64,000 nt of DNA from Dehalococcoidia bacterium (GTDB lineage: Bacteria > Chloroflexota > Dehalococcoidia > Lucifugimonadales > CBDFII01): positions 154,551 through 218,550 of the forward strand of contig CBDFII010000005.1 of the NCBI GenBank assembly GCA_965248115.1. Direction: 5' to 3'. A program made the translations under genes and the position numbers. Shown here piece by piece: positions 2,813 to 55,127 of this stretch (its first letter is position 1; the number at the start of each line of letters is the position of its first letter). Under the pieces are notes generated by a model. It searched no databases, had not been told where the DNA came from, and was given only the letters and a program-made list of their open reading frames with translations.

Positions 2813-3101
2813 CAGGGCGTAGCCCGAGAATACCTATCGGAGTCCAGAGCGAATAGAAGAAGAATTCCAATGCCATGATTGCGAGGAACATCGGTATGGC
2901 TCCAGTCGCTGTGAGAGCGCGTGACAGTCGAGGGGACCTCCCGCGCAATACGACACCTCCCAAGACAAGGGCCGCCGCCAATACGCCAAGTACTGGGGTG
3001 CCCCACCTACCGCCCAAGACCCAGCCAATATAGTAGAGGCCCAGCAATACTCCCAGTATCTCAGCGTGCCTTTGTGTCACCGCTCTGATGATTGCTGCCA
3101 T
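2622..3101 (-). CDS. Membrane protein N-terminal fragment (about the first 90 aa look real; the tail looks out of frame)
   Basis: The sequence MAAIIRAVTQRHAEILGVLLGLYYIGWVLGG...MFLAIMALEFFFYSLWTPIGILG is followed by an Arg/Cys/Pro-rich tail typical of a wrong frame. Removing one G at CCC 2823-2825 (+ strand coordinates) joins it to 1808..2812. Confidence 0.4.
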   Translation of the reverse strand: MAAIIRAVTQRHAEILGVLLGLYYIGWVLGGRWGTPVLGVLAAALVLGGVVLRGRSPRLSRALTATGAIPMFLAIMALEFFFYSLWTPIGILGLRPGACRGLACPRSHFQPQHECAAACCRKRCRTYGAMPRQSSDVPPHYSSGRRGRYARRDGGRIPG

Positions 3102-3298
3102 ATCGCACCTCGATAGACGGGTGGATTATGAAACCAACGAGCGAAGTGTACCACTGACTCTCTCCGCTGTTTCATAGGGCGAACAAGCTAGGGTTAGCAG
3201 TACGGATTGGCCCTGGGTCCCTGCCCATCAGGGCATGCACCCGGACTTGTCCTGAGGCGGACTATCGCCGCGCGTCGGGTGTTTCGCAAGGCTATGTG

Positions 3299-4417
3299 CT
3301 AAGCGCCATCAGAGGAGGGCTTTCGGAACGCCGGCATCACCTCCTGGGCAAAGAGACGTAGCTGCTCCAGCACCACTGCCTTGGGCTCCCCCATTGCTGT
3401 GGAGAGTAAAATCTGCTCCAGGCCAGGGTACCTGCTCTCCACCTCTTTCAGGTAGCCGATCAGCTCCTCTGGCGGGCCACACAGCCAGTCGCGCCGCTCG
3501 ACTAGGCTCTCGAAGGAGGTTCCTAGAGCGAGGCCCAGGCCCAAGGGGGCGGAGAACTTCTGGTTCTCTTCAAAGTAGGGCGTCGCCGCCTTTATGGCCT
3601 TCTCCCGAGTCTCGTCTACGTACCAACGAAAGCCCTGGATGATGTTCTCCCCCAATTGGAGCTCCTGCCCACTGCGGGCAGCGGCATCTTGGTACACGTG
3701 AATGGAGCGGTCGGCAGACTCCTCGCCAGTACCCGATATGACCCCCTTGATGCCGTTTTTGACCATGAAGTCGATGCCGCGGTCGCTGCCGGTCACGATA
3801 GGCTGCCACACTTCCACAGGTCGATTCACCGGACGTGGCACCAGGGTTATCTGCTCAAGCTCATATCCTCGATAGGGCACCCGAGGAGGGATGGTGTAGT
3901 GCTTGCCATGGTGGGAGAAGGAATCTTCGTTGAAAGCCTTGAAGATTATCTCCACCTGCTCCTCGAACAGCTCTCGGTTGGCATCTGCATCAAGCATAGG
4001 AGCACCGAAGCTCTCTACCTCTCGGGTATGGTAGCCACGACCCACACCGAAGATGACCCTCCCGTTGGTGAGGATGTCAGCCGTGGCGAAGTCCTCGGCC
4101 AATCGTAGAGGATGCCACATAGGGACGATGTTAAAGCCGCAGCCGAACTTGATCCGTTCAGTATGCTGAGCCAGATAGGTGCTGAGCATGAGAAGGTTAG
4201 GTGTGCACTCGTAGCCCTCGACTTGAAAGTGGTGCTCGGCCAGCCACAAACTATGGTAACCCAACTCCTCCATGATATGGGCCATCTCCAAGCAAGTGTC
4301 AAAGGCCTCGATCAGCCTTTCGTTCGGGTACCTGCGGTCGTTTGTCGGGGTACCTTCAATACCCAGGTTCTCCATGTCTATGTGGCCTGAGTAGAGAACG
4401 GAGAACTTCGTAATCAA
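3299..4417 (-). CDS. LLM-class (luciferase-like) flavin-dependent oxidoreductase
   Basis: The motifs LGYHSLWLAEHHF, GRVIFGVGRGY and the 372-aa length are typical of the bacterial luciferase-like monooxygenase family. Confidence 0.85.
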   Translation of the reverse strand: MITKFSVLYSGHIDMENLGIEGTPTNDRRYPNERLIEAFDTCLEMAHIMEELGYHSLWLAEHHFQVEGYECTPNLLMLSTYLAQHTERIKFGCGFNIVPMWHPLRLAEDFATADILTNGRVIFGVGRGYHTREVESFGAPMLDADANRELFEEQVEIIFKAFNEDSFSHHGKHYTIPPRVPYRGYELEQITLVPRPVNRPVEVWQPIVTGSDRGIDFMVKNGIKGVISGTGEESADRSIHVYQDAAARSGQELQLGENIIQGFRWYVDETREKAIKAATPYFEENQKFSAPLGLGLALGTSFESLVERRDWLCGPPEELIGYLKEVESRYPGLEQILLSTAMGEPKAVVLEQLRLFAQEVMPAFRKPSSDGA

Positions 4418-4546
4418 CGCCTCACCTCCATCGTTCTGTAGAACATATGCCTATCAGAAATGCTCAGGTTCATCCCACTGGCGGAACCTAAACCCGCAAT
4501 TTATAACTCGCTCGATAGCTCCTATACACAGTTGCACTATCCTATT

Positions 4547-5983
4547 TCAAGGCACTTGCGAAGGCAAGCTTTGTACCTTGGACTGGCCTGTGGGGCACAT
4601 CTCCAGAAGGCAGCACCCCTCACAAAGGGGCTCCTTTTTGCAGGTCTCCTTGGCGTGCCTATCCAGTAGCGCATGATACTCGTTGTAGAGAGAAGACTCA
4701 GGAGGCAGGGCCCCATGGAAGACCTCCTGGTAAGCACCGTAACTCCCCTCCTTTGGAGATAGCCCCAGCCTTTGGAGGATACGGCGGGTGTAAGCGTCTA
4801 TTACAAAAGAAGGCTGCTCGGCAGCATAAAGAACAATGTCATCGGCAGTCTCCTCTCCGATGCCGTAGATGGAAAGCAGCTCCTGCCGGAGTTCGTTGCC
4901 CTCTTTCGCCAGCAGCATGTCCAGCTCCCCTTCGTACTCCTCCCACAGGTGGTTTATGAATGCCTTGAGTTTCCTCGCCTTGGCGTTGAAATAGCCCGAA
5001 GGTCGCAGGAGGATAGCCAGCTCTTCTTCAGAGACCTCCAAAAGGGTTTTGGATGAGAAACAGTCGGCGGTCTTGAGGTTATTCAAGGCCCGCTCCACGT
5101 TGGCCCAGGCGGTGCCCTGGGTAAGGATTGCCCCAATCACAATCTCAAATGGGCTCTCCCCAGGCCACCAGTGCTGGGGCCCATACCATTGGAAGAGGCG
5201 ATGATATATCTCGATTAAGGGCTCAAAGCTCTCGGTTGGTGCCCTGCTGTCTTCCTTTGTTGCCGGCCTTCTCGCCATGGAACTTTTCCTTGATGACAGC
5301 CTCACAGATAGCCTTTCTGTCAGCCTTATCTCCTCTGTGGAGACCTTGCAGCGATAAGCGTACACCTCCACCCCTTGACCCACTGCGTAGCGAAGAGCAC
5401 CTCCAAAGTCAGGGTCAGCCTCATCGTTGGGTGCGAAGGCCGTGGCATCCTCCCGCTGAACGACGAAGACCACCGCCGCGCGATAGCCCTCGCTTATCGC
5501 CTTACACAGGCTGTAGAGATGCTTCACACCCCGTGTAGTAGGCGCATCGGGAAAGAGGGCCACGCCATCAACCACCAGGGTAACGGACTTGGTCTCCACG
5601 AAGCACTTGCCAACAGGCCCCTCCAGGATCATGTCCAGACGGCTCTCCCCGAAGGTGACCTCCCTCCGAACACTAGTATAGCCGGACAAAGGCGGGATAC
5701 CTTCCTTTCCCAGCGCCTCGTGAACCAGCACGTTGGGCAGGCGGGCGTCGGCTGAGCTAAGGTTGTGCCCTAGGTCCACCAATGCCAGGTCAAAAGATGT
5801 CTTGCGCCCATTCCTCGCAGCAGGCCGCAGCAACACCCGATTCCCCTCTACCAATAGCTCCCGCATTCGGCCCGAGTTGGCCACGTGCACTTCGGTCTCC
5901 ACACCCTCTAGCTCTACTACGGCAGCAAAGCGGTTGAGCCGCCGGATAAAGCGGGCCTCGACCAGGTTACTGTCCAGCCTCAA
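4547..5983 (-). CDS. SfsA-like domain fused to an endonuclease III-like HhH-GPD / [4Fe-4S] domain
   Basis: The N-terminal ~225 aa (RFIRRLNRFAAVVEL...VHVANSGRM...CFVETKSVTL...FPDAPTTRGVKHL) is SfsA-like. The C-terminal ~230 aa (WWPGESPFEIVIGAILTQGTAWANV...GIGEETADDIVLYA...CKKEPLCEGCCLLEMC) is endonuclease III-like with a Cys cluster. It is one uninterrupted 478-aa ORF with a TTG start after a GGAGG. Confidence 0.8.
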   Translation of the reverse strand: MRLDSNLVEARFIRRLNRFAAVVELEGVETEVHVANSGRMRELLVEGNRVLLRPAARNGRKTSFDLALVDLGHNLSSADARLPNVLVHEALGKEGIPPLSGYTSVRREVTFGESRLDMILEGPVGKCFVETKSVTLVVDGVALFPDAPTTRGVKHLYSLCKAISEGYRAAVVFVVQREDATAFAPNDEADPDFGGALRYAVGQGVEVYAYRCKVSTEEIRLTERLSVRLSSRKSSMARRPATKEDSRAPTESFEPLIEIYHRLFQWYGPQHWWPGESPFEIVIGAILTQGTAWANVERALNNLKTADCFSSKTLLEVSEEELAILLRPSGYFNAKARKLKAFINHLWEEYEGELDMLLAKEGNELRQELLSIYGIGEETADDIVLYAAEQPSFVIDAYTRRILQRLGLSPKEGSYGAYQEVFHGALPPESSLYNEYHALLDRHAKETCKKEPLCEGCCLLEMCPTGQSKVQSLPSQVP

Positions 5984-13761: not shown

Positions 13762-13836
13762 GCCAAGGTAGCTCAGCGGCAGAGCGGGCGCTTCATAAGC
13801 GCTAGGTCATAGGTTCGAATCCTATCCTTGGCACCA
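13762..13836 (+). tRNA. tRNA-Met (anticodon CAT), CCA encoded
   Basis: I folded the cloverleaf by hand. The acceptor is GCCAAGG/CCTTGGC, the D arm GCTC/GAGC, the anticodon arm GGCGC-TTCATAA-GCGCT, and the T arm ATAGG-TTCGAAT-CCTAT, followed by ACCA. The G1-C72 pair and the lack of three G-C pairs in the anticodon stem argue for an elongator type. An Ile2 (lysidine) identity cannot be excluded. Confidence 0.9.
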
Positions 13837-14654: not shown

Positions 14655-16024
14655 GTAGAGTCCCAGGAAGTGGTGTAATAAGAGGGAGAGGGTCTGGAGA
14701 AAGAGAGACCACCGCGTCATCCTTAGCGAGCAAAGAAGAAAGCTCGAGAAAGGAGGACAACAGTGGTCAAGGAGAGGATGGACCTGCTGGAGCTATTGCG
14801 CAAGAGGGGAGTCGACGGTGACGTGGACTTTCTACGCGAGGCACTGAGAGTGCTGGTCGAGGAGATCATGGAGGCTGATGTGTCATCGAGGACCGGTGCT
14901 GGGTATGGAGAACGCAACCCTGAGCGGGTGACCCAGCGCAACGGGTACCGGTCTCGAGCATGGGACACTCGCGTAGGGACCATGGAGTTGCAGATACCCA
15001 AGCTGAGGGAGGGGAGCTACTTTCCGATCCTGCTGGAGCCACGGCGTCGCAGCGAGCGAGCTCTGCTGGCGGTGATCCAGCAGGCGTATGTGGAGGGTGT
15101 ATCGACGAGGCGAGTGGATGATCTGGTCAAGGCTCTTGGGTGCGAGGGTATCTCAAAGAGCCAAGTGTCGCGTATCTGCCAGGAGCTGGACGGGGTGGTG
15201 GAGAGCTTCCTGGGTCGGCCGCTAGATGGGGGACCCTACCCCTATCTGTGGCTGGACGCACTAACCCAGAAGGTCAGAGAGGCCGGTAGGATAGTCAACG
15301 TCAGCGTGGTGGTGGCGACGGCGGTCAATAGCGAGGGCAAGCGTGAGATCGTTGGGATGGACGTGGGTACCAGTGAAGACGGTGCATTCTGGCTGGCCTT
15401 CCTGCGCTCACTGTCGGCCAGAGGCCTCGGCGGGGTGGAGCTGGTGGTATCGGACGCTCATCAGGGACTCCGAGGCGCCATCGCCGCAGTCTTCGGCGGA
15501 GCCAGCTGGCAACGGTGCCGCACCCACTTCATGACCAACCTGCTCACTCGGGTCCCCAGGCGCGCCCAGCCATGGGTAGCCACCATGGTGCGCACCATCT
15601 ACCAGCAACCCTCCCCCGATGAGGTACACGCCCAGTTCGACAGGGTGACCGATCAACTCCAGAACCGGTTCCCTCAGGTCGCCTCTCTACTGGACGAGGC
15701 TGGACCCGACGTCCTGGCCTTCTCCAGCTTCCCCGTCGCCCACTGGAAGAAGATCTGGTTCAACAACCCCCTGGAGCGTCTCAACAAGGAGATACGGCGC
15801 CGCACCGATGTGGTGGGCATCTTCCCTAACCGCCCAGCTGTCCGTCGCCTGGTCGGCGCCGTCCTAGCTGAGCAGCACGACGAGTGGGCCGTCGGCCGTC
15901 GATACATCACACAGGAGGTAACCACCTCCAACGAAGCTCTACCCAGAGCCGAACTCGCAGAGGCAGCGGCCTAGACGATATCAACAGGATGACGTACTCT
16001 TACACCACTCTATGGGACGTGACC
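14655..16024 (+). mobile_element. IS256-family insertion sequence, 1370 bp, flanked by the 9-bp direct repeat TTATTAGGA
   Basis: The imperfect terminal inverted repeats are GTAGAGTCCCAGGAAGTGGTGTAA (left) and TTACACCACTCTATGGGACGTGACC (right). The target duplication lies at 14646-14654 and 16025-16033. A single IS256-type transposase gene sits inside. Confidence 0.85.
14763..15974 (+). CDS. IS256-family (Mutator-type) transposase
   Basis: The motifs ...RNGYRSRAWDTRVGTMELQIPKLREGSYFP...YLWLDA...VVSDAHQGL..A....F....WQRC..HF..N......NPLERLNKEIRRR are typical of IS256 transposases. Confidence 0.9.
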   Translation: MVKERMDLLELLRKRGVDGDVDFLREALRVLVEEIMEADVSSRTGAGYGERNPERVTQRNGYRSRAWDTRVGTMELQIPKLREGSYFPILLEPRRRSERALLAVIQQAYVEGVSTRRVDDLVKALGCEGISKSQVSRICQELDGVVESFLGRPLDGGPYPYLWLDALTQKVREAGRIVNVSVVVATAVNSEGKREIVGMDVGTSEDGAFWLAFLRSLSARGLGGVELVVSDAHQGLRGAIAAVFGGASWQRCRTHFMTNLLTRVPRRAQPWVATMVRTIYQQPSPDEVHAQFDRVTDQLQNRFPQVASLLDEAGPDVLAFSSFPVAHWKKIWFNNPLERLNKEIRRRTDVVGIFPNRPAVRRLVGAVLAEQHDEWAVGRRYITQEVTTSNEALPRAELAEAAA

Positions 16025-29823: not shown

Positions 29824-30025
29824 TTTCTCCTCCATCAGTTCGCTATGTTTGTAGAGGGCAGGAAGATGAGGATGCTCTCTAACTCTTATGGGAGAGCTAA
29901 ACCATCTTAGCACAGGGTACTCACCTGTCCTACTGGATGTCTATCTCAAAGTATTTGACATCAAGGTCCAACTCAGTTATGTTCCCTACGCAAAGCAAGG
30001 GAACGCAGCTAGAATGAGGAGAGAA

Positions 30026-30613
30026 ATGCCCCCACAATCAGAGCGATGGCTGGAGATTTTCGAGCCTGTGGTAGCGTATCAGGACACCAGGGCCGTCCAG
30101 ATATCCCCATCGCCTAGGCCCACCAACCTGGAAGGCAAGCGGGTAGTCTTTATTGCCAACTTTAAGCCCCGATCGCTGCCCTTCATGGAGGTAGTGGCTA
30201 CAACGGCATCTCAGCAGATCCATCTGGGAGAGGCTGTCACTAAACAACCCACCTGGCCCTTCACCCACGCAGACCGCCTAAAGGAGATCGAGCCCCAGGT
30301 GGAGGTGCTGGCTAAAACGTGCGACGCAATGGTGACCGGGATAGGGGACTGAGGGGCCTGCACGCTGTGGAGTGTCCACGCAGCGACCAGCTTCGAGAGG
30401 CATGGCATCCCTTCGGTGATAATCGCCACCGACCTGTTCTTGGCTCACGCCCGCCGTCTGCTGGCCAGTCTTGGTTGCGCCCACACCCCCGTAGTGGTGA
30501 CTCCCAACCCCATCGTGTACTTAAATGCGAAGGAAGTTCAGCAACGTGCCGAGGCCCTTGTTCCTGAGATATCTCGGAGTATCACCACCCAGGGAAGACA
30601 GGTCGGAAGCTAG
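30026..30613 (+). CDS. Candidate selenoprotein (U-G-A-C motif); TGA at 30350-30352 read as Sec
   Basis: Track ORFs 29888..30352 and 30416..30613 are in the same frame with only this TGA between them. The translation across it is ...CDAMVTGIGD-U-GACTLWSVHAATSFERHGIPSVIIATD.... It aligns end to end with the paralogue at 49562..50107. An RBS (GAGGAG) precedes the ATG at 30026. Confidence 0.6.
30363..30385 (+). promoter_or_regulatory. SECIS-like hairpin downstream of the in-frame TGA
   Basis: The sequence CGC-T-GTGGA GTG TCCAC-G-CA-GCG forms a 5-bp apical stem plus a G.U pair plus 3 bp. The loop is GUG, and 19 nt separate the TGA from the loop. Confidence 0.35.
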
Positions 30614-30641: not shown

Positions 30642-31703
30642 ATGGTCAATAGAATCAAGATACAGGTGGACTCGGAAGAGGACGCCTCCGCCGATTTCTT
30701 TGACACCGCCTGTGATCGGGGCTGGACCGATGGTCTGCCAGTGATCCCGCCAACCCCCGAACGGGTGGAGGGCATGCTAGCCACAGTAGAGCGAGACCCC
30801 CAAGAGGTGGTCGCCATTCTGCCGCCTCGACAGGGTCCCGCCACTGTCGAAAGCCTGGCCGTTAATGCGGTGATGGCGGGTTGCCGACCCGAGTACTTCC
30901 CGGTGGTGGTGGCGGCAGTGGAGGCCATAGGTGACCCTCGGTTCCCTCGACGCACGCTATCTGGCCACACCCTTGAGACCCCATTCCTGCTCATCAATGG
31001 CCCCATCAGAAGAGAGATCAACATCAACTGTGAGACAGCATGTCTGGGACCCGGACGGCGGGCCAACGCTACCATCGGTCGAGCCCTTCAGCTTATCATG
31101 ATCAACGTAGGAGGAGGCATACCTGATGGGGTGATCAGCACCAATATGTCCTCGCCTCTCCATTACACCTTTTGCGCAGGGGAAAACGAGGAAGAAAGCC
31201 CCTGGGAACCCTTCCATATGGAGCATGGTTACAAGAAAGAGCAGAGCGTGGTCACCGCCTTTCGGGCCACCTCCTACATCGCCCTACTTGCCCCTTTGGA
31301 CTATTGGGACGAATCAGTAGAAGGCATCCTAAGCCATACCGCCGGTTCCATGGTCTCCCCTGATCAAACCGCATTGTATGGGGGAAACCTGTGCGCCTTG
31401 TTGCTGGTAACCCCCGAACGGGCCCAGTTCTTTGCCCAGGAGGGACTATCTAAAGCGGACGTCAAGGCGAGGCTTTGCGAGAAAGCATCGCTACCTCTCT
31501 CTGTTTTTCGCCCGGGAGTGAGGCAGACTTTGGAGGAACTGGGGCGGGTAAAGAGCGATAAAGTTACGATGTTTGACAGACCCGATGAGATTCATATCGT
31601 TGTCATGGGCGGGCCAGGGATCTACTCCATCTTCATCCCTGGCTTCTCTCACGAGGTAGTCCCCACTGCCCCAGTAGGCAAGCTAATCTCCACAGGGATG
31701 TAG
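30642..31703 (+). CDS. Uncharacterised conserved protein (GWTDGLPVxPPT / AVNAVMAGC / RANATxGRA motifs), partner of the TGA-containing gene
   Basis: An RBS (AGGAGGG) precedes the ATG at 30642, 28 nt after the upstream stop. The 353-aa protein is a clear paralogue of 50139..51182. I recognise no family. Confidence 0.7.
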   Translation: MVNRIKIQVDSEEDASADFFDTACDRGWTDGLPVIPPTPERVEGMLATVERDPQEVVAILPPRQGPATVESLAVNAVMAGCRPEYFPVVVAAVEAIGDPRFPRRTLSGHTLETPFLLINGPIRREININCETACLGPGRRANATIGRALQLIMINVGGGIPDGVISTNMSSPLHYTFCAGENEEESPWEPFHMEHGYKKEQSVVTAFRATSYIALLAPLDYWDESVEGILSHTAGSMVSPDQTALYGGNLCALLLVTPERAQFFAQEGLSKADVKARLCEKASLPLSVFRPGVRQTLEELGRVKSDKVTMFDRPDEIHIVVMGGPGIYSIFIPGFSHEVVPTAPVGKLISTGM

Positions 31704-49561: not shown

Positions 49562-50107
49562 TTACCCCTTGCCCATCAGCAGTTGCAGCACCTGGGGCAG
49601 TGCCTGACGGGCCCGATCCCACAACTGCTCTTCGGTTAGGGCGGTGATGGGGTGGGGCAGCACAACATAGGGGTAATCGGGTATGCCCTGGATCTGCGCC
49701 GTCATGTTGGCAGTTGGAATAAAGGGCTCGGTGCAGATGACCGCTGCGGGTTTACCCTGCTTCTCGATGGTGATGCCGTCGTGCACACTGCACGAACTGC
49801 AGGACCCTCAATCCCCTGTGGCAGTCACCACCATGTCACACTGGCTTAGCAGCTCTTGAAGAAGATCATCGGGGCAGGGACGGCTGGCGTTGCCCTTGTC
49901 GCGGGCAACGACCCCCTGTATCTGGTAGTGCTCCGCTATAAGGACACTTACATAGTCCAACAGCTTGTCGGCATTTCGTTTGCCATTGGAAAGTAGGCCC
50001 ACAGTCTTGCCGTTAAGGGATTCGGGCCTTGGCGCCATGTCTCCATGGGCTGGCATGGGCGGTACGGTGGGATTCAAAACGGTAAACTTGTCAGTTTGAA
50101 CTACCAT
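49562..50107 (-). CDS. Candidate selenoprotein (U-G-S-C motif); TGA at 49808-49810 read as Sec
   Basis: Track ORFs 49808..50107 and 49562..49786 are in the same frame with only this TGA between them. The translation across it is ...CDMVVTATGD-U-GSCSSCSVHDGITIEKQGKPAAVICTE.... A strong RBS (TAAGGAGG) precedes the ATG at 50107. Confidence 0.65.
49779..49795 (-). promoter_or_regulatory. SECIS-like hairpin downstream of the in-frame TGA
   Basis: On the minus strand, TCGTGCA GTG TGCACGA forms a 7-bp stem with a GUG loop. Again 19 nt separate the TGA from the loop. Confidence 0.35.
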
Positions 50108-50138: not shown

Positions 50139-51182
50139 TCAAATTTGACTTGTATCGATCTCCATAATAACGGAGCGTGACCCAATGCCGCCACCCCATA
50201 AGGGGATAACAGAGGCGAAGGCTCCAGCCTCTCCACCGGCGGTTATGAGGGTGATAGATTCGGGACTGAGGCAAATGGGAACCTTCTCCTTCTCCTTGGC
50301 AGGATCCGCTAAAGGCTCGGACCTGCTTGCCCGGGCCAGATCTCCGGCGGTACGTTGGGCGTCCTCAAAGAGGAACTGCCTCACTTGGGCCTTGGTCCAC
50401 CCAGCCTCCTTGATAGGGATCGTTAGCTCAGGAGAGATCACGACGATGATCTCGCCCTGGCCTGGGCCAGCAGCCCGGATAATATCGCTTATGCTGACCA
50501 GAATCCCCTCGGGGGTGTTGCCAACAACATTGGTTACCTGCCAGGGTGCAAGGGAAGCAAAGACAGTAACAGCACTTCGCTCTCGTGAGATTCCTCGTTC
50601 CACATGCAGGGGCTCCCAGGGGCTAGACTCCTCGTATTCGGCGAAGCAGAAGGAATATTTGCCAGGATGGCCCAGGGTGGACTTATCCAGTACCCCGGGG
50701 ATGGTACCGCACACGTTCATCAAGACCAAGCGCATGGCCCGGCCTACTGTGGCATTGGCCCGCCAGCCGGAGCCGAGGGCGTTAACGCCGCTGTTGAATC
50801 CCAGTTGATACCGTACAGGGCCGTTGACTACTACAAGTACAGTGGAGCCCTGGGTGCTAAGGGCACAGCTGTGGAGGTTAAAAGGGTCTTGGCAGATTGC
50901 ACGGACGGCAGCGGCTACCACTGGCATATATTCGGGCAGGCATCCGGCCATAACAGCGTTGATGGCCACCTTTTCAGCAGTGACCACACGTCCGCGGCCC
51001 GGCACCACGCCCAGAACATCGGAAGGAGCTAAGCCAGCCCTTTCCAGCGCCGCCACGACCTTAGCCTCAGTAGGTGGAACCACGGGCAACCCATCAGTCC
51101 AGCCCTGACTATAATAGAGCTCTATAGCTTCTTCTTGATCGGCAACCTGGATACGCTCGGAAATAACAGGCGACGTGCTCAT
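50139..51182 (-). CDS. Uncharacterised conserved protein, paralogue of 30642..31703, partner of the TGA-containing gene
   Basis: An RBS (GGAGGG) precedes the ATG at 51182. It shares the motifs GWTDGLPVVPPT, AINAVMAGCLPEYMPVVAAAV, GWRANATVGRA and EESSPWEPLH. It ends 31 nt before the downstream gene. Confidence 0.7.
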   Translation of the reverse strand: MSTSPVISERIQVADQEEAIELYYSQGWTDGLPVVPPTEAKVVAALERAGLAPSDVLGVVPGRGRVVTAEKVAINAVMAGCLPEYMPVVAAAVRAICQDPFNLHSCALSTQGSTVLVVVNGPVRYQLGFNSGVNALGSGWRANATVGRAMRLVLMNVCGTIPGVLDKSTLGHPGKYSFCFAEYEESSPWEPLHVERGISRERSAVTVFASLAPWQVTNVVGNTPEGILVSISDIIRAAGPGQGEIIVVISPELTIPIKEAGWTKAQVRQFLFEDAQRTAGDLARASRSEPLADPAKEKEKVPICLSPESITLITAGGEAGAFASVIPLWGGGIGSRSVIMEIDTSQI

Positions 51183-52350: not shown

Positions 52351-52379
52351 TTGGATTGTTGTCTAAAGGGGAGGTAAGG

Positions 52380-53639
52380 ATGCTTAAGATAGGCCATTAT
52401 GTTGAACGCCCCGGGTTGAAGCCAAAGGATGCTCCTGTAACCATCCCTGTAGCCGAAGAGCTTGAGAGCGTCCCAGGAATCCCCCAAAACCCTGCGGACG
52501 TCGACTGGTACAGCCGGGAGTATCCCGAAGAGACTCAGCAGGTGGAATACACCGCCGACCGGGAATGGGCCAACACGGTGCTTACACCTGAGGCCAAGGA
52601 GTTCAAGGAATTACACGAAAAGGTAATGGAACCTATCTACAAGCGCATCAGGGTCTCGGGGGATATCGAGCCCACAGCCCAGCCCACCGGCGAGGACGTG
52701 ACGGAGAAGATCAAGGCCAAGGCCCAAGAGTTGGGCTACCGTGAGGTGGGCATCGTCAAGTACGACCACCGTTATACATATAAGAGCGTGAAGCACTTCG
52801 TAAAGTACGAGCACGCCATCTGCCTGATGATGGAGCAAGATTACGAGCAGACCCAATCGGCTCCTAGCATGGATGCCGAGCACGGCCACTTCGGCACCTA
52901 CGAGATGCAAGGAATCGCTGGGCAGCGTCTCGCCGACTACGTCCGCTCCTTGGGCTACCATGCCCAAATACACGGCCCCAGCAACCACAACGCCGTAACC
53001 ATCCCCATGTTTGTTGAGGCAGGGCTGGGCCAATTGGGGGCTAACGGTCAGCTTCTCTCACCCCACTTCGGCTCCCGTGGCAGGCTCCAGCTCATTACCA
53101 CCGACGCCAAGGTAACCTACGACAAGCCGGTGGACTACGGGATCCACCGCTTTTGCCAGGTCTGCCAGGTGTGTGTCAATCGCTGTCCTGGGCGGGCCCT
53201 TCAGCGGGAGAAGGTGTGGTGGCGAGGCGTAGAGAAGAACAAGCTGACATACAAGCGCTGTGCCCCCGTGATGTTCCGCTATGAGGGGTGTGCCGTGTGC
53301 ATGAGGGTGTGCCCCATTCAGAAGTACGGAATGAAGGCCGTGATGGAGCACTACGTGGACACTGGGGAGGTGCTGGGCAAGGGCACCCACGAGCTGGAGG
53401 GCTACGAGATGCGGGGCAAGGGATATTTCGGCCCCGGCCAGCTTCCCACCTTTGACAACCAGTTCTTCCAGATCCCCCATGGCCGCACCGAGGACATGCT
53501 CTTTGAGGATTTCAAAGCTGAGCTCATCGACGGCGAGCTTCCCTCGGGCTCAGATGGGATCCGCATACTGGAGGAGTTCAAGGCCAATGTTAAGCACGCC
53601 TTGGACGAAGCCGCCCGGGCCACCAACCCTATGGACTAG
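52380..53639 (+). CDS. Reductive dehalogenase / epoxyqueuosine reductase (RdhA/QueG)-superfamily-like Fe-S protein, no signal peptide
   Basis: The core EAGLGQLGANGQLLSPHFGSRGRLQLITTD is followed by CQVCQVCVNRCP (C-x2-C-x2-C-x3-CP) and C-x10-CAVCMRVCP. An RBS (GGGGAGG) precedes the ATG at 52380. Confidence 0.65.
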   Translation: MLKIGHYVERPGLKPKDAPVTIPVAEELESVPGIPQNPADVDWYSREYPEETQQVEYTADREWANTVLTPEAKEFKELHEKVMEPIYKRIRVSGDIEPTAQPTGEDVTEKIKAKAQELGYREVGIVKYDHRYTYKSVKHFVKYEHAICLMMEQDYEQTQSAPSMDAEHGHFGTYEMQGIAGQRLADYVRSLGYHAQIHGPSNHNAVTIPMFVEAGLGQLGANGQLLSPHFGSRGRLQLITTDAKVTYDKPVDYGIHRFCQVCQVCVNRCPGRALQREKVWWRGVEKNKLTYKRCAPVMFRYEGCAVCMRVCPIQKYGMKAVMEHYVDTGEVLGKGTHELEGYEMRGKGYFGPGQLPTFDNQFFQIPHGRTEDMLFEDFKAELIDGELPSGSDGIRILEEFKANVKHALDEAARATNPMD

Positions 53640-53840: not shown

Positions 53841-55127
53841 ATGCTTAAGATAGGTCATTACGTTGAACGTCCCGGTAGAAAGGCAAAGGACCCATCTGTC
53901 AACATCCCTGTAGCCGAAGAACTGGAAACGATCCCAGGCATCCCCATCCATCATCAGGACGTGGAGTTCTACTCCCGTGAGTATCCCCTGGAGTTCATCA
54001 ACATTGTCGAGCGTGCGCCTCAGGACTGGGCCAACCAGCTTGAAGACTCCAATCCAGACACTCGGGAGATCCATAACGAGCACAGACGCCTTAACAAGCC
54101 ACTAATCGAGGCGGCCCGTCGCACCGGGGATATAGAGCCTACGGATATGCCCACGGGCGAAGACGTCACTGATAAGATCAAGGCCAAGGCTCGCCAGCTA
54201 GGCTTCGGCGAGGTGGGGATCACCAAGTACGATCATCACTATACTTACGAGAGCAAAAAGAGCTGGGTCAAGAAGTACCCCCATGCCATCTGTCTGGCTT
54301 ACGAGCAATCCTACGAGTCCACCCAGTCAATCCCTAGCGTGGCAGCGGAGATTGTCCACTCCAGTACCTACAGAACCGAGGGTGCTGTCAGCCTAGACCT
54401 GGCTGATTACATTCGCACTCTGGGGTATCACGCCCAGGTACACAACCCCAACGACAACACCGGTGCTTACATACCCGTGTTCGTGCAGGCTGGGCTAGGC
54501 CAATTGGGAGCCAACGGTCAGCTTCTCTCCCCCCACTTTGGCTCCCGGTCCAGGATAATGCTCATCACTACCGATGCTAAGGTGACACACGACCAGCCTG
54601 TGGACTATGGCATCCATCGCTTCTGCCAGATATGCCAGGTGTGCGTCAACCGCTGTCCCGGGCGGGCACTGATGCGGGAAAAGATATGGTGGCGGGGCGC
54701 AGAGAAGAACAAGCTGATCTATAAGCGCTGCCGCCCGGTAATGGCCCGCTACCTTGGCTGCGGTGTCTGCATCAAGGTGTGCCCTGTCCAGAAGTATGGT
54801 ATGAAGGCCGTGATGGACCATTACGTGGCCACGGGGCAGGTGTTGGGCAAGGGCACACACGAGTTGGAGGCATATTCCATGGAGGGCAAGGGCTATTTCG
54901 GACCCGGTCAGCTTCCGTCATTCGACGCCGAGTTCTTCAATATGCCCCACGGCACTGCTGAGAATCACGTGCTGGAGCAGTTCAAGGAAAAGTTCCAGGA
55001 GGTCGACGATATTGACTCATCTGAGGGTGAAGCCCTGTTCGAGCAGTTCAAAACCACCCTGGTAACGGCTTTTGGGCTAAGCCCCAACTACGACCCCCAA
55101 GAGCAGGAGGATACCCCAAACTTCTAA
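53841..55127 (+). CDS. RdhA/QueG-superfamily-like Fe-S protein, tandem paralogue of 52380..53639
   Basis: The two proteins share the first 12 residues (MLKIGHYVERPG), the same core and the same two Cys motifs (CQICQVCVNRCP; C-x10-CGVCIKVCP). Confidence 0.65.
   Translation: MLKIGHYVERPGRKAKDPSVNIPVAEELETIPGIPIHHQDVEFYSREYPLEFINIVERAPQDWANQLEDSNPDTREIHNEHRRLNKPLIEAARRTGDIEPTDMPTGEDVTDKIKAKARQLGFGEVGITKYDHHYTYESKKSWVKKYPHAICLAYEQSYESTQSIPSVAAEIVHSSTYRTEGAVSLDLADYIRTLGYHAQVHNPNDNTGAYIPVFVQAGLGQLGANGQLLSPHFGSRSRIMLITTDAKVTHDQPVDYGIHRFCQICQVCVNRCPGRALMREKIWWRGAEKNKLIYKRCRPVMARYLGCGVCIKVCPVQKYGMKAVMDHYVATGQVLGKGTHELEAYSMEGKGYFGPGQLPSFDAEFFNMPHGTAENHVLEQFKEKFQEVDDIDSSEGEALFEQFKTTLVTAFGLSPNYDPQEQEDTPNF

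Follow-up and report, generated by a model that had tools for sequence, protein, structure and literature searches.

The 64-kb stretch of DNA considered here (64,000 nucleotides of a Dehalococcoidia bacterium; GenBank assembly GCA_965248115.1, contig CBDFII010000005.1, positions 154,551 to 218,550 of the forward strand) contains two genes of the UGSC family of selenoproteins, termed copy 1 and copy 2, each with an in-frame TGA. The whole stretch is referred to below as the window, and its own coordinates are used throughout. Copy 1, the main subject of this analysis, occupies 30026..30613 on the plus strand in a frame that is open save for a single TGA at 30350-30352, which is read here as a selenocysteine (Sec) codon in the motif GD-U-G-A-C. 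The open reading frames (ORFs) 29888..30352 and 30416..30613 lie in the same frame and the intervening 63 nt contain no further stop, so that rereading of the frame bears out what a first-pass annotation of this DNA had described as one in-frame TGA within an otherwise continuous ORF. The full product comprises 195 residues including Sec109, with 86 codons between the TGA and the terminator TAG at 30611-30613, and reads ...MVTGIGD-[TGA]-GACTLWSVHAA... at the site (in longer context, AKTCDAMVTGIGD-[TGA]-GACTLWSVHAATSFERHGIPSVIIATD). Translation is taken to start at ATG 30026, which has GGAGAG ahead of it, a choice supported by the N-terminal fragments of orthologues, which are likewise 108 residues long; the orthologues share the layout of the gene as a whole.

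Copy 2 (49562..50107, minus strand; TGA at 49808-49810) is a selenoprotein gene typical of the UGSC family; it encodes 181 residues and has the motif GD-U-GSCSSC. When the read-through product of copy 1 was compared with the window by tblastn, one other locus was found, namely copy 2 (45/162 residues identical, 28%; E = 2e-17), and the two TGA codons fell in one alignment column, in agreement with the earlier claim that the TGA holds the same position in a second, diverged paralogue. A six-frame scan of the window for ORFs split by TGA yielded 70 mechanical candidates, among which protein-like conservation on both sides of the TGA was seen only in copies 1 and 2; the pattern is therefore not a common chance feature of the window. 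In public protein collections neither product is recorded at full length, the entries being truncated to 154 and 99 residues.

Family assignment was made with Sec written as cysteine (Cys). Copy 1 matches the Pfam entry PF24696 'UGSC family' with 122.3 bits (E = 3e-35) over profile positions 2-171 of 172, against a gathering threshold of 25 bits, and copy 2 matches it with 197.7 bits. The name that the first-pass annotation had put forward, 'UGSC family (seleno)protein', does exist as NCBIfam NF041046, and copy 2 passes the curated equivalog cut-off of that model (160.2 bits against 125). Across 27 UGSC members the residues G, D, U/C, G and C are invariant. The literal family motif UGSC reads UGAC in copy 1, the UxxC being kept and S replaced by A; this S is not conserved in the clade of copy 1 at large, in which it is G or A and the motif becomes 'U-G-[AG]-C-T-x-W'. 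Copy 1 is a divergent member of the known UGSC selenoprotein family and not a new kind of system.

Close relatives of copy 1 are scarce in protein databases: a search of 5.8 billion proteins brought up, besides the truncated gene call of copy 1 itself, a single further entry (P0002). An exhaustive search of 1.84 billion cluster representatives by HMMER, for which the first 108 residues served as the query, gave 12 matches, most of them 105-110 residues long and ending at the Sec column in ...G-V-G/A-D (two end in ...A-Y); most of the 12 are gene calls truncated at the same TGA. The DNA of six relatives within the clade (L001, L082-L087) has TGA at the column in every case, aligned with those of copies 1 and 2, and the frame continues as G-[AG]-C-T/M-x-W-S... 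In the four orthologues that reach a stop, 81-90 codons lead from the TGA to a common end, and in L001 and L083 the frame stays open up to the end of short contigs. The closest relative, L001, is 70% identical to copy 1, and the differences between the two after the TGA are concentrated at third codon positions (7/3/23 by position), with 21 synonymous-only codon changes as against 8 amino-acid changes. The clade also has a full-length form with Cys in place of Sec, P0152 (GD-C-GGCTLWSV), which is 45% identical to copy 1 after the TGA (E = 2e-25).

The same picture holds for the main family. Database homologues of copy 2 are mostly 99-residue truncations ending in ...TGD, and full-length Cys forms exist in P0008 and P0028. 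A genome scan with one genome per GTDB species gave 139 confirmed loci, the best 80 of which were analysed; nearly all are metagenome-assembled genomes (MAGs) of Dehalococcoidia, SAR202 or Chloroflexota, and in 80/80 the column holds TGA followed by conserved GSCSSCSVHDGI... Homologues thus have TGA or Cys at this position (Cys in P0152, P0008 and P0028) with conservation on both sides, and they do not terminate there, since full-length Cys forms exist and the frames of the TGA forms run on. The protein conservation that the first-pass annotation had reported after the TGA is upheld in orthologues, in which coding constraint over 30353-30613 is clear from the third-position differences.

Two irregular kinds of database record were met among the homologues. 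The public entries P0007 and P0014 show 'W' at the Sec column; the DNA of P0007 (L093, L094) has TGA there, which had been translated with a different code table, an artefact that can hide selenoproteins. P0023 (296 residues) joins the C-terminal half of a protein of the neighbouring partner family, described below, to a UGSC N-terminal fragment, and was rejected as a true fusion; it is probably a frameshifted gene call near the stop of the partner gene.

In the main family the mRNA downstream of the UGA follows the consensus UGA GGN UCN UGY NNN UCG UGC AGU GUG CAC GAC, within which nt +16 to +32, counted from the U of the UGA, form the hairpin UCGUGCA-GUG-UGCACGA. The codons of the stem are almost without variation: Ser+5 is TCG in 72/73 sequences, Cys+6 TGC in 76/76, Ser+7 AGT in 76/76, Val+8 GTG in 67/67 and His+9 CAC in 73/74. 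Outside the stem, Ser+4 is written in six different codons and Cys+3 in both of its codons. Synonymous sites within the stem are frozen, which shows constraint on the RNA. In an alignment of 65 sequences, 99.1% of cells are paired and two pairs show compensatory double changes; 0/500 shuffles reach values as high as these, the pairing collapses once the 3' partners are slid out of place, and RNAalifold arrives independently at the same helix. Where the main family has C-G at columns 21/27, one of the two compensated pairs, copy 1 and L001 have G-C; Cys UGC has changed to Trp UGG and, opposite it, Val GUG to GUC, a synonymous change. The other, in L053, couples Ser UCG -> UCC with His CAC -> Gln CAG. 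Each of the three Cys forms departs from this hairpin, by degradation or a changed loop: one has 4/7 pairs, another 5/7, and the third 6/7 with the loop GCG.

In the window, copy 2 carries this hairpin as its SECIS at 49779..49795 (minus strand; UCGUGCA-GUG-UGCACGA, a 7-bp stem with the loop GUG). The putative selenocysteine insertion sequence (SECIS) of copy 1 lies at 30365..30381 on the plus strand, again at nt +16..+32, with a core stem of 30366-30371 paired to 30375-30380 and an apical loop GUG at 30372-30374; the loop starts 19 nt past the UGA and contains G-U. A covariance model, R1, was built from 62 sequences of the family, with L001 and everything from the window left out, and was run unfiltered over both strands of the window. 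It picked out copy 2 with 71.1 bits (E = 2.5e-15) and copy 1 with 32.3 bits (E = 4.4e-6, 30350-30397); the third-best match reached only 12.8 bits, so that the two TGA sites alone stand out. Within the clade of copy 1 the five core pairs of the hairpin are 100% paired, one of them being compensated in L084. The hairpin after the UGA for which the first-pass annotation had suggested a search is therefore backed by comparative evidence and by R1, less strongly for copy 1 alone than for the family.

That the lineage decodes Sec follows from the tRNA-Sec genes of five related SAR202/Dehalococcoidia MAG loci (L031 3988-4085, L041 3564-3661, L045 7270-7367, L051 6641-6738 and L068 9112-9209), which lie at distances of 0.1-3 kb from UGSC; all five have the anticodon TCA according to ARAGORN and score 62-72 bits against Rfam RF01852, whose gathering score is 47. 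Near the tRNA-Sec of L045 and L051 there are genes for a class-V aminotransferase, an arginase and an S-adenosylmethionine (AdoMet) decarboxylase; these neighbours were considered as selA, selB or selD and rejected on account of those identities, and the aminotransferase might be of the cysteine desulfurase or selenocysteine lyase type. A literature search on SAR202 and selenocysteine returned nothing relevant. The only tRNA gene in the window is a tRNA-Met (13762-13836), and about 0.9 kb downstream of it lies a Mutator-family transposase gene (14763..15974, plus strand; PF00872, E = 3.9e-134).

In light of the conserved TGA, the Sec/Cys pairs, the constraint on the RNA and the family membership, it was concluded that copy 1 is a genuine Sec-encoding UGSC gene, with a probability of roughly 0.9; the recoding proposed in the first-pass annotation is thus supported by the family match, the TGA and Cys homologues, the hairpin and the coding constraint downstream. 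From these comparisons we infer that Sec is actually inserted in this organism. Several results weigh against this reading. No selA, selB, selD or tRNA-Sec was seen within the 64-kb window, where inspection of the ORFs, as far as the sel genes are concerned, revealed none that was obvious. Copy 1 scores 93.6 bits against NF041046, below the equivalog cut-off, and is a family member by Pfam that falls outside the NCBI equivalog boundary. No Rfam SECIS model matched, either in the window at gathering thresholds or in 30300-30450 at E <= 10. Single-sequence folding of the copy 1 region is no better than that of shuffled sequences (z = 0.18 and 0.51), and because the energies are indistinguishable from shuffles, folding energy was dropped as evidence and comparative data were used instead. 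Covariation within the seven-sequence clade of copy 1 is not significant, being reached by 70/500 shuffles, and RNAalifold favours another hairpin in this clade (30353..30377; columns 4-28), which starts 1 nt past the UGA, with some covariation between columns 6 and 26. This alternative was rejected as the SECIS of the family, only 62% of its cells pairing family-wide; it is a possible SECIS of copy 1 alone.

Two other accounts of the TGA have to be weighed against recoding. If translation truly stopped there, the product would be an N-terminal protein of 108 residues, with or without a separate 65-residue ORF from GTG 30416, or the locus would be a pseudogene that arose through nonsense mutation or an error in sequencing. 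Public gene calls do end at the TGA (P0001, for example, and many entries of 99 to 110 residues), and the lack of visible Sec machinery in the window is also what this account would lead one to expect; set against that are TGA at the column in 80/80 family loci and in all 8 Sec-form members of the copy-1 clade (copy 1 itself, L001 and L082-L087), Cys homologues of full length, and conservation of the 63 nt between the ORFs as coding sequence (GACTLWSVHAA...) in a frame kept by purifying selection to a common C-terminus. A nonsense mutation would not be expected to recur at random at one column in paralogues that are 28% identical. With one TGA column shared by such paralogues and by more than 85 independent sequences, stop, nonsense mutation and sequencing error are set aside as very improbable, and the first-pass annotation was right that neither a plain stop nor a random nonsense mutation fits. 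Reassignment of TGA to Trp or Gly (genetic code 4 or 25), the residue then not being Sec, could appeal to the W recorded at the column in P0007 and P0014, but the W of P0007 is itself TGA read under another table, and translation of the record under table 11 does not give the query. TGA is moreover the ordinary stop of 12/41 large ORFs in the window, which argues that it is not reassigned in this organism, and conservation across a TGA is confined to the two UGSC genes of the window. Since, in addition, homologues carry Cys at the column, not Trp or Gly, and a tRNA-Sec adjoins the UGSC gene in relatives, reassignment can be given next to no credence.

Each copy has a partner gene beside it. 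Partner 1 (30642..31703, plus strand), which starts 28 nt downstream of copy 1, encodes 353 residues of an unnamed family with the motif GWTDGLPVIPPT; partner 2 (50139..51182, minus strand), 31 nt from copy 2 on its upstream side, encodes a 347-residue orphan-family protein. The two are 35% identical and have the motif GWTDGLPV(I/V)PPT in common, and the family has two invariant cysteines. A partner homologue was found in 75/80 of the related loci, mostly directly upstream of the UGSC gene on the same strand, and no further neighbour gene is conserved across the family loci. In the clade of copy 1, a protein of the partner-1 type (57-68% identical) lies directly downstream of the UGSC gene wherever the flank is available, so that every UGSC subtype is accompanied by a partner subtype of its own. 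The partner family comprises at least 7990 clusters at 90% identity, named only 'hypothetical protein' and in no case carrying a Pfam domain, and 42 members gave no Pfam or NCBIfam match, even at E = 1. The AlphaFold2 model of partner 2 has a predicted local distance difference test score (pLDDT) of 91 and a predicted template-modelling score (pTM) of 0.92. A sequence search of the PDB with the partner gave no significant match, and the Foldseek matches (class I fumarate hydratase, cyanuric acid hydrolase and SelD/PurM-like proteins), with template-modelling (TM) scores of 0.2-0.28, were not taken as homology.

The arrangement of the two genes varies in a few loci. One metagenomic contig (L084, 3001..6100) has two UGSC-plus-partner modules in tandem, with a UGSC gene at 3001-3573, its partner at 3791-4840, and a second UGSC gene from 4997 that is followed by a partner-like gene. 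At the locus of the Cys form P0008 (L090/L091, 455..2922), rve and HTH_Tnp_1 transposases lie between partner and UGSC gene, and a peptidase M20 gene follows. Neighbours at loci of the copy-1 clade encode a TctABC transporter, an amidase, an asparaginase, MmgE/PrpD, LysR and MFS proteins, which gives only a hint that small organic acids or amides might be the substrate. Elsewhere in the window, two tandem paralogues of 427 and 428 residues (52356..53639 and 53841..55127, both plus strand) both begin with MLKIGHYVERPG and match no Pfam family at E <= 1e-5.

The fold of the UGSC protein was read from an AlphaFold2 model of the natural Cys homologue P0008, not of copy 1. The model (pLDDT 92.8) consists of five alternating beta-alpha units, and the Sec/Cys position lies where strand 3 passes into helix 3. 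Foldseek returned flavodoxin-, lumazine-synthase- and GTPase-like matches with TM scores of at most 0.51 and, among the 50 matches listed, no protein of the thioredoxin fold; a sequence search of the PDB with UGSC gave no significant match. The fold is thus predicted to be flavodoxin-like and not thioredoxin-like, a flavodoxin/Rossmann-like reading drawn from the order of secondary structures and the types of Foldseek match, not from coordinates. An NCBIfam scan of 27 UGSC members gave a recurrent set of sub-threshold matches to selenoprotein B models: GrdB (TIGR01917) was matched by 24 members over a stretch of about 75 residues that surrounds Sec (best E = 1.2e-7), TIGR01918 by 21 (2.4e-6), GrdH by 18 (8e-5), GrdF by 15 (1.5e-6) and PrdB by 14 (0.0016). 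For the window copies themselves the matches reach 12-19 bits and span about 50-90 residues around Sec, where the cut-offs are 65.45 bits for TIGR01918 and 602 bits for TIGR01917. This consistent weak similarity is read as remote homology of one region and not as family membership; copy 1 may all the same function much as selenoprotein B does.

The following course of events is proposed. The UGA at 30350-30352 would be decoded as Sec with the help of an mRNA hairpin about 13-16 nt past it, which would act as the SECIS and recruit SelB and Sec-tRNA(Sec) to the ribosome. The product of about 195 residues is predicted to form a flavodoxin-like alpha/beta domain in which the Sec of U-x-x-C, where strand 3 ends and helix 3 starts, could cycle between the selenol/thiol and the selenenylsulfide forms. 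Copy 1 would be co-transcribed with partner 1; UGSC may act as the catalytic or redox subunit that carries Sec, distantly akin to the Sec region of selenoprotein B, and the partner may be the substrate-binding subunit.

It is no more than a tentative suggestion that UGSC and its partner constitute a two-component selenium-dependent reductase, a model built from gene order and sequence similarity. More tentative still is its fuller form: a hitherto unrecognised two-subunit enzyme, very widespread in marine SAR202/Dehalococcoidia, in which the Sec subunit would be an offshoot of the GrdB/PrdB Sec domain and the partner a new fold binding a small organic substrate, with the two modules of the window (UGSC-partner and partner-UGSC) serving different substrates. 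A small organic substrate is proposed because the neighbours in the copy-1 clade encode tricarboxylate transporters, amidase, asparaginase and MmgE/PrpD. The reductase model has its own difficulties: it draws on synteny and on hidden Markov model matches that fall far short of family thresholds, neither a domain nor a match to a PDB fold (TM <= 0.28) could be recognised in the partner, and in the neighbourhood neither GrdA nor GrdC/D was found, nor any homologue of the pyruvoyl proprotein (GrdE/PrdA). UGSC might instead be a free-standing thiol/selenol-disulfide oxidoreductase of the thioredoxin fold, a general antioxidant to which the adjacent gene is a mere neighbour. The UxxC motif is typical of such proteins, but the five beta-alpha units of the P0008 model and the absence of thioredoxins from its listed matches are at odds with that fold, a partner is adjacent in 75/80 loci, the UGSC subtypes keep to partner subtypes of their own, and the weak consistent similarity is to GrdB/PrdB, not to thioredoxins; this alternative is considered unlikely.

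The 'UGSC-containing protein' was reported in 2007 as a selenoprotein of unknown function (PMC1976440), and the family, described by Zhang & Gladyshev in 2007/2008, is still listed as uncharacterised in reviews of 2022 and 2026. In the Global Ocean Sampling (GOS) data, 255 Sec forms were counted as against 21 Cys forms, and UGSC was sometimes found fused to an 'Unknown_1' domain (PMC2398784). A 'likely Trx-like fold' was suggested for it in 2008, with which the P0008 model, lacking thioredoxin matches, disagrees. What is new here is the weak but consistent similarity to GrdB/PrdB, the predicted flavodoxin-like fold and the subtype-matched partner. Both genes of the window should be annotated as full-length selenoproteins. 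The understanding of Sec recoding itself is unchanged by copy 1; what the locus offers is a set of handles on UGSC function, namely an obligate, subtype-matched partner family, the GrdB/PrdB similarity, a predicted non-thioredoxin fold and, in some SAR202 genomes, adjacency to tRNA-Sec.

Copy 1 resembles the known UGSC family in its length (about 180-195 residues), in the Sec of a U-G-x-C that follows a conserved G-D, in the SECIS hairpin directly after the UGA and in its occurrence in aquatic or marine bacteria. It differs from the typical family in that U-G-A-C-T-L-W replaces U-G-S-C-S-S-C, with loss of the third Cys, in having N-F-K-P-R in place of N-G-K-R-N, in a reversed gene order that puts copy 1 upstream of its partner, and in belonging to a small clade of only about ten clusters at 50% identity.

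The hairpin invites comparison with the SECIS of E. coli fdhF, both lying within coding sequence directly 3' of the UGA. In SECIS elements of the fdhF type, as here, the apical loop contains G-U and stands some 19-20 nt past the UGA. Compared with these, the family stem here is 6-7 bp with a three-base loop GUG, some members of the copy-1 clade have a five-base loop AGUUG, and no bulged U is evident. For the protein, the comparison is with selenoprotein B (GrdB, GrdF, GrdH and PrdB; TIGR01917/TIGR01918/TIGR04483), of which PrdB is also a UxxC selenoprotein (PMC2398784, Table 2). UGSC is much shorter, with about 180 residues as against about 430 for the selenoprotein B subunits, and the hosts differ, UGSC occurring in bacteria of the SAR202/Dehalococcoidia type and selenoprotein B in Stickland-fermenting clostridia; in both, the gene for a second subunit, a putative one in the case of UGSC, lies adjacent.

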